Shown: positions 10,851 through 58,990, counted from the stretch's first letter. The stretch: DNA of 64,000 bases from a virus (IMGVR_UViG_3300030035_000081:1-64000); one strand, 5' to 3'. The notes: generated by a model not told the origin, from the letters alone. Made by a program: numbers and translations.

Positions 10851-10945
10851 AAGCGCGGTTTTGTCCGCGCAGCTGCTCCAAAAGACAGCCTCCACGCGGC
10901 GAGCAGCGGGCAACGGGAGACAGTCCCGGCAAATTGTCTTTGAGA
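10851..10945 (+). ncRNA. copy 1 of recurring structured RNA motif (AGCCUCCACGCGG loop closed by GCTGCTC/GAGCAGC, then GGGCAAC and a hairpin)
   Basis: Seen in sequence. Covaries with copies at 57105-57196 and 58911-58990. Confidence 0.45.
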
Positions 10946-10964
10946 CGGAAGGAAGAAGTGCCCT

Positions 10965-11354
10965 ATGCGAGTACAACAGGTTCCGAACTCACCCTATTTC
11001 ATCCATTACGACGATGAGGGCTTTTGCTGTATATCCAAAAGCAGAGAAAGCCAAGAACCTATCCCGGAATCTGAGATGCAAGCGTTCCTTGATGCAGTAG
11101 CCAACGGGTTACTCTACATCGAGAAAGAGCGAAAGAGCAGATACCAGCGCATCGAAGAAGCCGAAAAAGCAGCTTTTGCCAAGGGTGAAGCGGAAGGTCG
11201 AGAAGATAAGCTGCTCGCCACAGTCAAGGAGCTGAAGGAAGAACAAGCGTCAAGAGCAGAGTATGAGCGCAAGCTGCAATATGAAGTATATGCTCATCAT
11301 ACTTCGCACACCACGAAAACCGAGTGGGTTCGCCTTGGTCGTGGAGGATGGTGA
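10965..11354 (+). CDS. hypothetical protein (129 aa)
   Basis: ORF with coiled-coil-like middle region. Confidence 0.5.
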   Translation: MRVQQVPNSPYFIHYDDEGFCCISKSRESQEPIPESEMQAFLDAVANGLLYIEKERKSRYQRIEEAEKAAFAKGEAEGREDKLLATVKELKEEQASRAEYERKLQYEVYAHHTSHTTKTEWVRLGRGGW

Positions 11355-11356
11355 TT

Positions 11357-11620
11357 GACATGATGGGAAGCATTCCGATTCCGAATACAAGATTTTATCT
11401 GACCAGCATCGATGGCAAAAAGTGGTTCGTAACAGAATACTACAGAACCGCACCATTTAACCCCGACAAAGAGACCTATGACTTGTACAAGGCGTTTGCG
11501 GAAGCATTCAGAAAGAACGAAATGGAAGAGCAGGAGTTTCAAGAGGAGCTCAAAAAGGCCGTCAATAAAGCTTACGGAAACGGCTTATACGCCGGACGGC
11601 ATAGTGTTGATTTCGGCTGA
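11357..11620 (+). CDS. hypothetical protein (87 aa)
   Basis: GGAGGA RBS 8 nt upstream of ATG 11357. Confidence 0.5.
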   Translation, partial: DMMGSIPIPNTRFYLTSIDGKKWFVTEYYRTAPFNPDKETYDLYKAFAEAFRKNEMEEQEFQEELKKAVNKAYGNGLYAGRHSVDFG

Positions 11621-11666
11621 ACCGAACAAGAAAAGAAAAACGGCACAGGAAAGCGGCAGAACGAAT

Positions 11667-11912
11667 ATGAGCATAGCAAAAATCGAAACTGCATCAGGCG
11701 TAACGCTGGTTCTCAACGGCAAAACAGTTTTCGCCTCAGATGATACCTCATACTGGATGCAGGGGTCTAAAATCATCGACGAAAACGGTTGGATTTGTGG
11801 TAACGCCGAGACTATCCGAGATGCCCTGTGCATAGTCTTGGCAAAGTACGGCGGGCTAAAGGGAAACAGCGCAAAACAAACAAAACCAGTAAAGGCGGTG
11901 AGAGCATGGTAG
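11667..11912 (+). CDS. small paralog A of a four-member family (about 65-85 aa; conserved ...C.S.DEA...V...YGG... C-terminus)
   Basis: Paralogous to 11906..12097, 12108..12317 and 35061..35261. Start chosen to match family length; the ORF table starts earlier at 11478. Confidence 0.45.
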   Translation: MSIAKIETASGVTLVLNGKTVFASDDTSYWMQGSKIIDENGWICGNAETIRDALCIVLAKYGGLKGNSAKQTKPVKAVRAW

Positions 11913-12097
11913 TATATACGAAATCAGGCGTGACGGTGAATTGCTGCGGTAATCTCTTCATTGCATCGGACGGCAAAACCTACAACCTCTGCGGCAGGAT
12001 GCTGACCTGCAGCGGCAAGGTCATTAGCTACAACTGTCAGTCGAAAGACGAAGCACTGGGTACGGTCGTGGGACTGTACGGCGGTCGAAGGTTCTAG
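11906..12097 (+). CDS. small paralog B
   Basis: Sequence similarity to neighbours (SDGKTYNLCGRMLTCSGKVISYNCQSKDEALGTVVGLYGG). Confidence 0.55.
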   Translation: MVVYTKSGVTVNCCGNLFIASDGKTYNLCGRMLTCSGKVISYNCQSKDEALGTVVGLYGGRRF

Positions 12098-12107
12098 GAG
12101 GTACAAT

Positions 12108-12317
12108 ATGCAAACGGTCATGACAAACAGAGACGTAGAGCTACGTGTGGAAAGCAGCATCATTTACACAACCGATTCGAAGGCGTTCTGGCGCAGCGGC
12201 AACATGCTGGTCGGAAACGGCACGGTCGTCAGCTACCAGTGCCACTCGATGGATGAGGCGGTCGATATGGTCGCCGCCTTGTACAATGGCAGAAAAACAG
12301 AAGCAGCGCAAGCATAA
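12108..12317 (+). CDS. small paralog C
   Basis: AGGAGG RBS. Similar to A and B (VSYQCHSMDEAVDMVAALYNG). Confidence 0.6.
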   Translation: MQTVMTNRDVELRVESSIIYTTDSKAFWRSGNMLVGNGTVVSYQCHSMDEAVDMVAALYNGRKTEAAQA

Positions 12318-12335
12318 CCATCCTGCAAAAATATA

Positions 12336-12372
12336 TGCCGTTCATCTTTTTGGGTGGACGGCTTTTTGTTTT
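12336..12372 (+). terminator. intrinsic terminator
   Basis: Stem GCCGT...ACGGC followed by a T-run. Confidence 0.5.
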
Positions 12373-12437
12373 GTGAATACAGCGATTCAGTGGCGAAGCG
12401 AGCCGATTTTTCCAGCAGTTTGATACTCTGTGGGCAG

Positions 12438-12465
12438 TTGCACAGCCGTGCAAATTGCATACAAT
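12438..12465 (+). promoter_or_regulatory. island promoter family member 3: -35 TTGCAC, spacer AGCCGTGCAAATTGCA, -10 TACAAT
   Basis: Seen in sequence. About 340 nt upstream of 12807 gene. Confidence 0.5.
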
Positions 12466-56964: not shown

Positions 56965-57104
56965 ACAATTGTTCTCAGGAAGAGGAACGGCTCCTGAGAC
57001 ATCAAGGTTTTCCTTTCCCCAATCTTGGTCGCATGGCTTCATTTGAGCTGACACAGGTGAAGCGTGAAAATCATCCGTTTCATAGTAATATCCTTCCTTT
57101 CTTT

Positions 57105-57196
57105 GGCGCGGGTAACTCCGCGCCAGCCGTCCAAGCAAACAGCCTCCACGCGGTGGACGGTGGACAACAGATGTTTCCGTGTTCCGGGCATCTGGC
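57105..57196 (+). ncRNA. copy 2 of recurring structured RNA motif (CCGTCCA/TGGACGG stem around AGCAAACAGCCUCCACGCGG; then TGGACAAC and hairpin)
   Basis: Seen in sequence. Confidence 0.45.
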
Positions 57197-57210
57197 TAAT
57201 GTTTGTATTT

Positions 57211-57286
57211 GCTGGTTTAGCTCAGCTGGTAGTGCAACTGATTTGTAATCAGTCGGTCATCGGTTCAAGTCCGATTTCCAGCTCCA
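57211..57286 (+). tRNA. tRNA-Thr(UGU)-like with two U-U mismatches at the base of the acceptor stem
   Basis: Manual cloverleaf. Anticodon loop TTTGTAA, T-arm ATCGG/CCGAT, encoded CCA. Confidence 0.5.
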
Positions 57287-57759
57287 GACGCTATCCGTTG
57301 GATGTATCGAAATCACATGATACGATGCTATACACAACATCTGGCGGACAGCATGCCACCCATTAAGGCGGCCTCCTCGTGGCGGGTGGCGGACAGCGGC
57401 TCTTGCGGCTGCTGACGAATGTCTTAGAAGCATGCAAACGTACGAGCATCCCCGTCAAGTCGGGGCGCATCCAGACGCGACACAGCCGTAAAGGCGAGAT
57501 TGCTGCACGGCAACTGGTAAGTTTCGCCGCAGTCTCACACACAGCCCAACAACAACCGTTAACCCGATTTGACAGGGAATCAACGACAGGGCTCAAAATT
57601 TGAAGTTGACCAACACCCAAGCGCTTTCTTGGATTCTCGCGTATCGTCAACGATGAGGTTCGCAAGATTGTCAGGTGGTGTGAAGATGACATCCGGGGAT
57701 GACGACCTACTAAACGGATGTCATGGCGGGGCTAAGTGAGGGTTCACCCGCAATCTTAT

Positions 57760-57834
57760 GCAGGTATCGTATAACGGCTAATACTCCGCCCCTCCAAGGC
57801 GGAGACGCGGGTTCGACCCCCGCTACTTGCTCCA
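57760..57834 (+). tRNA. tRNA-Gly(UCC)
   Basis: Manual cloverleaf. Anticodon loop CCTCCAA, T-loop TTCGACC, CCA encoded. Confidence 0.8.
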
Positions 57835-58105
57835 CACGTCGCAGTCACCGTACCCACGACGTTAAACTTGGTGAGCATGGTCCACTTGTGGTCCGCTGTC
57901 CGAATGTCGATGAGACAGCCTCAAAAATAATAGACAAACAGGTGCTGTGCCTGATAGTATCCAATAGTCCCGGTATTAGTCGCGAATAAGACCGGAAAAC
58001 AGCGGAAAGGGTATAAAGCAGAATCCATCGATGCAGCTATCGAATGGTGCTGGATGCGAGTTGGCTTCTCGCTCAAGGGGTGACCAGCATAAAACACCCT
58101 ATCGT

Positions 58106-58181
58106 GCTCGATTAGCTCAGTTGGTAGAGCAGCGCATTCGTAACGCGCAGGTCGGCAGTTCGAACCTGCCATCAAGCCCCA
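58106..58181 (+). tRNA. tRNA-Thr(CGU)
   Basis: Anticodon loop TTCGTAA. One mismatch each in the acceptor and anticodon stems. Confidence 0.7.
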
Positions 58182-58219
58182 TTACCCAATGAAGCGATAA
58201 TAGAAAGGAGATGAAACTT

Positions 58220-58603
58220 ATGGAACAGGCAATTATCAATGTTGAAGGTACGACTACCATAGAAACCGCTGCAGCAGCCAAAAAGCTGATTGAAATGTTT
58301 GGCAATCAGAACGTCCGCGCCATCTCGGTCAATCGTGTAAACGACAAGAGCGACGAGGTCATTGTTGAACTCGATTTCGTTCCCGGTTTGGCACCGCATC
58401 TGCACGGCTTCACGCTTCAGGTTAATGGCTTGACTTGCGGTTATGCTGGTACTGGTCCTTCCAATCTGTATGAAGTCCTGCAGGCGGCTGGCGTGAGTGA
58501 AGCTCAGGTAGCACGCGAGGACATCACTCAGAAGAGCACAAAAACCATTCCTCTGCGCCTGGAACGCGCCGTGACTCAGTACGGCGACTTCCAGTTTGCG
58601 TAA
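58220..58603 (+). CDS. hypothetical protein (127 aa) embedded between tRNA genes
   Basis: GAAAGGAGA RBS. Confidence 0.5.
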   Translation: MEQAIINVEGTTTIETAAAAKKLIEMFGNQNVRAISVNRVNDKSDEVIVELDFVPGLAPHLHGFTLQVNGLTCGYAGTGPSNLYEVLQAAGVSEAQVAREDITQKSTKTIPLRLERAVTQYGDFQFA

Positions 58604-58633
58604 CGTTATTTGGCGGGCTTGACCCGCCATCAT

Positions 58634-58709
58634 GGAGGGATAGCTTAGCTGGATAAAGCACCTGCCGCAAAGCAGGGTATCGATGGTTCGAGGCCATCTC
58701 CCTTCTCCA
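58634..58709 (+). tRNA. tRNA-like gene with non-canonical anticodon arm (6-nt loop CGCAAA on a 5-bp stem, or 8-nt loop on a 4-bp stem); identity unresolved
   Basis: Canonical acceptor, D and T arms and CCA, but no 7-nt anticodon loop can be drawn. Confidence 0.4.
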
Positions 58710-58910
58710 TCCAGACACCCTTTCGCTTCCTTTCGCCAAAGGTATCTGGGGTATTGTACTGCATTGCGTGTAGTACGGCCAATCAGGCGCGGAACTCCGA
58801 AACCATACCACGAAGAATTTTATCCTCTCCGCGCAGCATGGACATGCGATTTTACGGGGATAAATTCAAACCGAAATTGTGTCGAGTGGTGAAGACGGTT
58901 GCGACACTGG

Positions 58911-58990
58911 CGAAGCACATATCTGCTTCGTCAACCATCCATGAGAAAGCCTCCACGTGGCAGATGGTGGGCAACGCAGCAAAGCTGCGG
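58911..58990 (+). ncRNA. copy 3 of recurring structured RNA motif (CCATC/GATGG stem around CATGAGAAAGCCUCCACGCGGCA; then TGGGCAAC and hairpin GCAGCAAAGCTGC)
   Basis: Seen in sequence. Confidence 0.45.

Follow-up and report, generated by a model that had tools for sequence, protein, structure and literature searches.

The theta ribozymes of gut Caudoviricetes are minimal RNAs of the hepatitis delta virus (HDV) type, and a tRNA-associated subset cuts within 5 nt of the tRNA 3′ end (Kienbeck et al., 2024, PMC10879173). Four theta ribozymes self-cleaved in vitro, and a C-to-U change inactivated them (PMC10879173). The supplementary records give the order P1, J1/2, P2, RCC, U, CC, NCGY, GGY, P1′, GG, GUAACG, CUAA, P2′ over about 55 nt (PMC10879173). 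For most bacterial and phage HDV-like ribozymes that lie away from tRNA 3′ ends, the role has been called unknown (PMC10879173). Here, we describe four copies of a structured RNA motif in a 64,000-nucleotide stretch of viral DNA (IMGVR_UViG_3300030035_000081:1-64000), referred to below as the window. All four almost certainly belong to the Faecalibacterium prausnitzii type of HDV-like self-cleaving ribozyme; they bear a P4 helix and lie in an uncultivated phage of gut Clostridia. To the explanation as a whole, identity and proposed role together, we give a probability of about 0.8; in it the copies would serve as constitutive processing sites, leaving hairpin-capped 3′ ends while transcription continues. 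The class itself is already known and is curated in Rfam. Three aspects are modestly new: the hairpin that caps the predicted cleavage site, the location of some ribozymes 5′ of tRNAs, and a candidate RNA of 224 nt that a ribozyme would terminate.

Identity, number and fold of the copies

An earlier note on this DNA had described three clear copies of the motif and a diverged fourth, as an RNA family that could not be assigned to a known class. Each of the four was confirmed, on the plus strand. The 13-mer AGCCTCCACGYGG has three exact matches, at 10887, 57141 and 58948, and one with two mismatches, at 57370. In an Rfam search of the whole window, made at gathering thresholds, RF02682 (HDV-F-prausnitzii) matched copy 1 (10872–10941; 60.4 bits, E = 1.2e-8). 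A permissive search of positions 56500–64000 matched the same family to copy 2 (57126–57206; 44.0 bits, E = 9e-6), copy 3 (58934–59001; 40.7 bits, E = 5e-5) and copy 4 (57355–57426; 34.1 bits, E = 1.7e-3). The gathering score of RF02682 is 44 bits, which copy 2 equals. The motif can thus be placed in a known ribozyme class, and the supposedly unknown RNA family is largely explained. Two weak matches to the classical HDV ribozyme family, RF00094 (28.7 and 25.4 bits; gathering score 50 bits), fall on copies 1 and 2, both below the threshold.

We also built a covariance model, R1. A MAFFT alignment of all representatives misplaced the 5′ ends because the length of J1/2 varies. Therefore, R1 was built from seven sequences in equal register; it covers P1, P3 and the base of P4. 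With filters off, and both strands of the window searched, R1 scored 79.5 bits for copy 1, 74.6 for copy 4, 68.9 for copy 2 and 58.5 for copy 3. The next-best match in this search reached 16.6 bits, so the window holds exactly four copies and no fifth.

The motif maps onto the HDV fold. The stem previously described as closing the loop is P1. The string AGCC/UCCACGY/GG(C) provides the end of P2, followed by P3, L3 and P3′. The GG of the conserved GGRCAAC pairs with the CC of L3 to make P1.1, RCAA is J1.1/4, and the next hairpin is P4. Beyond P4 lie J4/2, with the catalytic cytosine, and the 3′ strand of P2, which pairs back to the A-rich stretch preceding P3. The earlier note had missed both of these elements; it had placed the copies correctly and had cut off the 3′ third of copies 2–4. 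The loop it took to be invariant is not, since copy 3 reads ACGUGG and not ACGCGG. In all four copies P1 runs for about 7 bp from the cleavage-site nucleotide. A 3-bp P3 that closes an L3 of 7 nt, and a P1.1 of two pairs, are likewise as expected of HDV-like ribozymes. In the seed alignments, the positions equivalent to U20 and G25 (both in L3) and to C41 never vary.

Relatives were sought with an exact-pattern scan of IMG/VR, which gave at least 117 stretches on viral contigs of 13–247 kb. Many of these are near-identical to the window, which is thus part of a well-sampled lineage of uncultivated phages. A covariance-model search for homologues had been suggested as a check. Among the IMG/VR matches listed, R1 detects 107 ribozymes (60 distinct) from 55 sources, with up to seven in a 10-kb locus. 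On the 60 distinct gut-phage relatives, P1, P2, P3, P1.1 and P4 all covary. For the structure including P1.1, standard pairing is seen in 98.8% of cells, compared with 30–62% when the 3′ partners are slid by 1–3 columns. Changes on both sides occur in 11 of 15 pairs. All seven P1 pairs covary, in line with the compensatory changes originally reported for this stem. P3 pairs in 100% of cells, and its outer pair changes from G-C to A-U in seven sequences. P1.1 also pairs in 100% of cells, and one of its C-G pairs becomes U-A in two distinct relatives. Because P2 crosses P1, it was assessed separately. The relatives contain at least 11 distinct, mutually complementary P2 sequence pairs, the mean helix length is 5.5 compared with 3.1 for mismatched partners, and each window copy has 6–8 bp. 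P4 is short and variable. The catalytic cytosine of J4/2 is found in 59 of 59 distinct relatives.

The same pattern was used to scan prokaryotes, with one genome per species, and gave 73 loci. R1 matches 33 sites at E ≤ 0.001. Apart from one Polyangia locus and one weak Verrucomicrobiota match, these sites (about 31, spread over about 30 loci) have the look of true ribozymes. All of the true bacterial ribozymes are in gut Clostridia (Ruminococcus, Oscillospiraceae, Lachnospiraceae, Acutalibacteraceae and unclassified Clostridia metagenome-assembled genomes). More than half of the 73 loci (in Planctomycetes, Actinomycetes, Lysobacter and others) had no R1 match at this threshold and were set aside as probable chance occurrences in GC-rich DNA.

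The proteins of the window match phage families in PHROG and tblastn comparisons, and the tblastn matches include phages of Firmicutes. For one protein, the tblastn matches were all weak (<60% identity) and fell on phage records from human faeces and on phages of Listeria, Clostridium, Streptococcus, Coprococcus and Blautia. A megablast of 13.7 kb against annotated phages gave no match, and distant blastn of the copy-2/copy-4 region against annotated records matched only tRNA. On this evidence the phage has no annotated relative at the DNA level.

One related contig carries a chimeric ribozyme (L041:2577–2647; IMG/VR contig 3300045988_181558), in which a copy-2-type 5′ half is joined to a copy-3-type 3′ half. 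Recombination between the two ribozyme cores, with loss of about 1.8 kb, could account for this arrangement. Thus, ribozyme copies can recombine. The product is probably inactive because its P2 strands no longer pair.

The hairpin at the cleavage site and the setting of each copy

A GC-rich stem, of at least 6 contiguous bp with at least three G-C pairs, ends 0–3 nt before G1 (the first base of P1) in 52 of 75 distinct phage and bacterial contexts. For random positions in the same loci the figure is 113 of 3000 (3.8%). The mean minimum free energy (MFE) of the last 32 nt before G1 is −13.7 compared with −4.5 kcal/mol. The base at −1 is A in 45 of the 75 contexts, U in 29, G in one and C in none. 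Across lineages the hairpin stems vary in sequence yet remain paired. A stable hairpin ends 0–1 nt before the predicted cut in three of the four window copies, and also in most relatives. In loci L112, L022 and L020 the helix just 5′ of the cut is a tRNA acceptor stem, which is a theta-like arrangement. To our knowledge, a hairpin before the cleavage site is not part of the RF02682 family description, and a full-text literature search found no description of a hairpin or terminator linked to such ribozymes.

We considered whether the upstream hairpins are intrinsic (Rho-independent) terminators. This was rejected; a single A and then the ribozyme follow, and there is no U-tract. A terminator scan lists 10853–10870 on the minus strand only, and its plus-strand call at 58975–58989 is the P4 of copy 3. 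On the plus strand an A-tract precedes the copy-1 hairpin, which, read on the minus strand, scores as an intrinsic terminator (GCGCGGACAAAACCGCGC followed by TTTTGAG). Such a minus-strand terminator may block antisense transcription or may be coincidental. A-rich sequence also precedes the hairpin in several bacterial copies.

In bacteria, the hairpin and ribozyme lie as a cassette between a long open reading frame (ORF) and a downstream gene. The ORF stop is 23–59 nt before G1, a gap that fits the hairpin and nothing more. Of the seven downstream proteins tested, six have polysaccharide-synthesis domains (flippase, GT2, GT4 or epimerase). These polysaccharide-cluster cassettes echo the known drz-Fpra-1 upstream of glmM.

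The features of the window, and loci used for comparison, are listed in Table 1. All four copies are intergenic and sense to their neighbours, so the view of a structured RNA family in intergenic leaders was sound.

Table 1. Positions of the ribozymes, their parts and neighbouring features. Coordinates are those of the window unless a locus is named; SD, Shine-Dalgarno sequence.
Feature	Position	Strand	Basis and details
TnpB-like gene	4446–5555	opposite to HEARO RNA	OrfB_IS605 and Cas12f1-like TNB domains
HEARO RNA (IscB-associated omega RNA family)	6182–6442	+	91.2 bits, gathering score 83
SPFH/flotillin gene	6500–8143		follows HEARO RNA
VWA-domain gene	ends 10845	+	TAA stop 10843–10845
Copy-1 hairpin	10853–10870	+	GCGCGG-UUUUGU-CCGCGC; sequence, MFE fold; starts 8 nt past VWA-gene stop
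Ribozyme copy 1	10872–10941	+	RF02682, R1; predicted cleavage 10871/10872; hairpin plus ribozyme 10853–10941
Copy 1 helices		+	P1 10872–78/10901–07; P2 10881–87/10935–41; P3 10888–90/10898–900
Copy 1 core		+	L3 10891–97; P1.1 C10892, C10893 with G10908, G10909
Copy 1 3′ part		+	P4 10914–28; J4/2 10929–34, catalytic C10930
Site-1 SD, GGAAGGAAG	~10947	+	ATG 10965
Intrinsic-terminator-like site	12337–12362	+	closes site-1 gene row/operon
Putative near-consensus promoter, TTGACC-17-TATAAT with TG extension	56936–56964	+	promoter scan, 11/12 matches; ~160 nt 5′ of copy 2
Copy-2 hairpin	57105–57124	+	GGCGCGG-GUAACU-CCGCGCC; sequence, MFE fold; then A57125, then predicted cut
Ribozyme copy 2	57126–57206	+	RF02682, R1; predicted cleavage 57125/57126; hairpin plus ribozyme 57105–57206
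Copy 2 helices		+	P1 57126–32/57155–61 (G1·U wobble); P2 57135–41/57200–06; P3 57142–44/57152–54
Copy 2 core		+	P1.1 C57146, C57147 with G57162, G57163; P4 57168–94; catalytic C57196
tRNA-Thr(UGU)	57211–57286	+	ARAGORN; 4 nt 3′ of copy-2 end
Ribozyme copy 4 (diverged)	57355–57427	+	RF02682, R1, fold; predicted cleavage 57354/57355
Copy 4 helices		+	P1 57355–61/57384–90; P2 57363–70/57420–27; P3 57371–73/57381–83
Copy 4 core		+	P1.1 C57375, C57376 with G57391, G57392; J4/2 ACGAA, catalytic C57416
Copy 4 P4	within 57394–57414	+	CAG/CUG may extend P4 into J1.1/4
Spacers in tRNA cluster	57429–57759; 57835–58105	+	~330 nt; ~270 nt
tRNA-like gene	58634–58709	+	6-nt anticodon loop (CGCAAA); ARAGORN 'tRNA-???' with 2-base 'anticodon'; Rfam tRNA 46.4 bits
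Conserved structured element, 224 nt	58710–58933	+	alignments; consensus fold with compensatory pairs
Copy-3 hairpin	58908–58933	+	terminal hairpin of 224-nt element; ends exactly at predicted cut
Ribozyme copy 3	58934–59000	+	RF02682, R1; predicted cleavage 58933/58934; hairpin plus ribozyme 58908–59000
Copy 3 helices		+	P1 58934–40/58962–68; P2 58943–48/58995–59000; P3 58949–51/58959–61
Copy 3 core		+	P1.1 C58953, C58954 with G58969, G58970; P4 58975–89; catalytic C58991
Site-3 SD, AAAGGAG	~59055	+	ATG 59069, ~70 nt past ribozyme
Bacterial cassette loci	L119–L190, e.g. L161:4582–4650, L133, L137, L123		gut Clostridia polysaccharide-synthesis clusters
Loci with ribozyme just 5′ of a tRNA	L010, L053, L081, L093, L094, L020, L029, L056; window 57126–57210		phage

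The copy-1 hairpin is separated from the cleavage site by 1 nt (A10871). It is kept in orthologous contexts, with compensatory changes in loop and stem.

Copies 2 and 4 are within a cluster of tRNA genes, of which ARAGORN finds 18 in the window. The putative promoter upstream of copy 2, recognised by its match to the consensus, is likely the start of the tRNA-cluster transcript. Placement immediately before a tRNA is recurrent; at least six ribozyme lineages end 2–13 nt 5′ of one (Thr-UGU, Ser-UGA twice, Met, and Asn twice). Copy 4 is 68 nt 3′ of tRNA-Thr(UGU) and, measured from the end of the model match at 57428, 331 nt 5′ of tRNA-Gly(UCC). The latter spacing is constant in many related contigs. 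The two spacers listed for this cluster contain no convincing ORF or Rfam match.

Copy 3 directly follows a conserved structured element of 224 nt. Its conserved blocks are GCGCGGAACUCC ... CCGCGC and GUGYCGAGUGGCGAAACCGGCUGCGRCAY. Related phage contigs carry homologues of equal length, placed between tRNA-Ala(UGC) and a ribozyme and in some cases repeated in tandem. No Rfam family matches the element at E ≤ 10. The element is a candidate new non-coding RNA, the 3′ end of which would be made by copy 3. In 98 of 104 occurrences of its 3′ motif the hairpin and ribozyme come next, at a fixed distance. Of the six occurrences that lack a recognisable ribozyme, five have a U-rich tract and then a tRNA after the hairpin. 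Taken together, these counts suggest that ribozyme, U-tract or terminator, and downstream tRNA are interchangeable ways to end the 224-nt RNA. Two ribozyme-less variants (L194 and L196; IMG/VR 3300029615_000411 and 3300029428_000172) have the hairpin GGGGCCGAAAGGCCCC, then UUCUUAUAU, then tRNA-Ser. In these variants, a terminator-like end appears to have taken the place of the ribozyme.

The 5′ end of the element is bordered by the tRNA-like gene, which occupies the slot of a normal tRNA-Ala(UGC) in alignments with more distant related phages. It is not an assembly error, since ARAGORN finds it in 13 of the ribozyme-bearing loci examined, and it may be a processing signal only. On the other side, the protein that starts at ATG 59069 has an N-terminus that reads, by eye, as a putative signal peptide.

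Elsewhere in the window, the HEARO RNA is followed by the SPFH/flotillin gene and not by IscB, and it looks like an orphan omega RNA. A TnpB-like gene is on the opposite strand.

Proposed function and alternatives

We propose that each copy would fold co-transcriptionally into a nested double pseudoknot (P1, P1.1, P2, P3 and P4). The J4/2 cytosine, with a Mg2+ ion held by L3, would then catalyse a cut directly on the 5′ side of the base that opens P1. This would leave a 2′,3′-cyclic phosphate on the upstream RNA and a 5′-OH on the downstream RNA, which would keep the ribozyme. We infer cleavage, and the chemistry of both ends, from established knowledge of HDV-like ribozymes. Because the GC-rich hairpin ends 0–1 nt before the cut, the upstream RNA would have a terminator-like 3′ end. 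It would resemble a trimmed transcript from an intrinsic terminator, presumably resistant to 3′ exonucleases, with RNA polymerase continuing past the site. The other product would begin with a compact fold just before the SD sequence (site 1) or the tRNA (site 2).

The predicted consequences differ between sites. At site 1, the cut would part the mRNA of the VWA gene from the next cistrons. At site 2, a leader of about 150 nt would be parted from the tRNA cluster, and at site 4 a tRNA trailer would be trimmed. At site 3, the cut would make the 3′ end of the 224-nt RNA and part it from the mRNA of the gene starting at ATG 59069. A function in processing and in making 3′ ends is moderately favoured by these settings, and activity would be constitutive, with consequences for RNA stability. 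The initial suggestion of a cis-regulatory element or sRNA family understates a predicted self-cleaving processing site; no ligand or regulatory switch is indicated.

Several observations weigh against this account. Copies 3 and 4 are below the RF02682 gathering score, and copy 4 has the lowest Rfam score. Copy 4 also has G in place of A43, an ambiguous P4/J4/2 register in its fold and no strong upstream hairpin. It may have lost the hairpin, since related type-F ribozymes in other contigs have one at this place. Copy 3 begins with A rather than G, giving an A1-U pair, and has a C·A mismatch at the top of P1, where a G restores the pair in many relatives. The covariation alignment was fitted to our own model R1, a concern mitigated by the slid-partner control and the independent Rfam matches. 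The hairpin, P1, P3 and P4 are only partly reproduced by nested MFE folds, as expected because the fold is a pseudoknot. It is not evident why a tRNA would need a ribozyme 4 nt ahead of it, as RNase P would cut there anyway. In Firmicutes, a 5′-OH can promote decay by RNase J1, as for glmS. Therefore, the downstream product may be destabilised and not insulated. Lastly, the hairpin could instead serve ribozyme folding.

This last possibility is the main alternative. The hairpin would lock the 5′ flank away from mispairing with the core during transcription, and so speed cleavage. Upstream sequence and structure do modulate folding of HDV ribozymes, and the strong tie between hairpin and cleavage site, in phage and bacterial copies alike, is as this idea predicts. 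However, simple sequestration requires neither the tight 0–1 nt spacing nor the terminator-like, GC-rich stems. Furthermore, a hairpin with a U-tract can replace the ribozyme, which argues that the hairpin has a role independent of it. We therefore regard a folding aid as the sole role of the hairpin as rather doubtful. The two roles are not mutually exclusive.

The hairpin and ribozyme cassette, as a processing site, may have a wider use. Tentatively, it could be a general 'terminator without termination' in polysaccharide operons of gut Clostridia and in phages, with theta/tRNA pairs as a special case. It would also mature the RNA of about 224 nt that borders the tRNA-like gene. Such a general device is undescribed as far as could be found. 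Ribozyme-made, hairpin-protected 3′ ends, and the segmentation of operons or tRNA clusters, form a concrete and testable hypothesis. That hypothesis rests on the hairpin at the cut in phages and Clostridia, on the swaps of ribozyme for hairpin and U-tract, and on ribozymes 5′ of tRNAs. For these ribozymes it is the context that could matter, and the conserved 224-nt RNA is flagged as a candidate.

Ligand- or condition-dependent cleavage could instead tune the downstream gene. This has been proposed for drz-Fpra-1 and glucosamine 6-phosphate (GlcN6P) upstream of glmM; modulation of that F. prausnitzii ribozyme by GlcN6P is given as a cited result in PMC6765202. In favour of such regulation, copies 1 and 3 are in 5′ leaders of protein genes. 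The window copies have no extra conserved domain or aptamer-like insert, though, and P4 is short and variable. The downstream targets are also heterogeneous, being proteins of no recognised type, tRNAs and non-coding spacers. Regulated cleavage is thus improbable here.

It is also very improbable that the copies are theta ribozymes in the published sense, trimming the 3′ trailer of a tRNA immediately upstream. The core sequence is identical and the window has its tRNA cluster; moreover, in the contigs of L112, L022 and L020, the only three such lineages, a tRNA 3′ end lies within −1 to +2 nt of G1. In the window, by contrast, the nearest upstream tRNA ends 68 nt from copy 4 and 224 nt from copy 3. 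Copies 1 and 2 have no upstream tRNA in the window, and the flanks of copy-2 orthologues are also tRNA-free. Copy 2 and at least five other lineages are on the opposite side, just 5′ of a tRNA. All four copies have a real P4. Hence, theta identity is rejected for these copies, since the minimal architecture is absent and no cut is near a tRNA 3′ end. There is no suppressor tRNA among the tRNA genes of the window, and its long ORFs are uninterrupted under the standard code, so the link between theta ribozymes and recoding does not apply.

The covariation and context data exclude an anti-SD cis-regulator, a repeat that codes for protein, and a simple DNA repeat such as a recombination site or the end of a mobile element: CCUCC is complementary to the SD sequence, as the earlier note observed, and the copies are dispersed repeats of which one chimera is known, but in P1.1 the middle CC of this string is paired with GG, and the pairing covaries, the indels between copies are not multiples of three around a common core of about 35 nt with covarying stems, and the copies sit between stop and start codons.

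Comparison with known systems

The window copies share with theta ribozymes the core RCC-U-CC-NCGY-GGY...GG...C(U/A)AA and the helices P1, P1.1, P2 and P3, as direct comparison with the theta records shows. A CUAA-type J4/2 strand, tRNA-rich gut phages, and a helix plus 1 nt before the cleavage site are also common to both. The 6-nt GUAACG of theta ribozymes corresponds, in the window copies, to GCAAC, a P4 stem-loop of 5–8 bp and G. The window copies are unlike theta ribozymes in being 67–81 nt long with P4 (theta, about 55 nt), in that no cut abuts a tRNA end, and in the position of copy 2 on the 5′ side of its tRNA. In the portion of the theta supplementary tables compared, the ribozyme cores of the window were not found.

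With the HDV ribozymes of RF00094 the window copies share the fold and catalytic strategy, the equivalents of C75, U20, G25 and C41, and an A-rich J1.1/4. They differ in having no sequence-level membership of that family. Their setting is also unlike, with processing of DNA-phage transcripts proposed here and rolling-circle RNA replication in HDV.

A close match is drz-Fpra of F. prausnitzii (RF02682). It is alike in the nested double pseudoknot, the real P4, the core (CCUC.ACG.GG, GGCAAC and GGCUAA) and the host group of gut Clostridia. Conversely, the window copies are in a phage, are not upstream of glmM and number four per 64 kb.

Protective 3′ stem-loops at mRNA processing sites, and synthetic ribozyme insulators such as RiboJ, provide a parallel for the proposed outcome. 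In such systems, polycistronic RNA is cut to leave a hairpin 3′ end or a structured 5′ end, and the window cassette would likewise give an upstream piece with a stable hairpin at its 3′ end and a downstream piece with a defined, structured 5′ end. The natural bacterial examples of protective stem-loops are not known to be cut other than by a protein RNase. In the window cassette, the cut is predicted to be built into the RNA.

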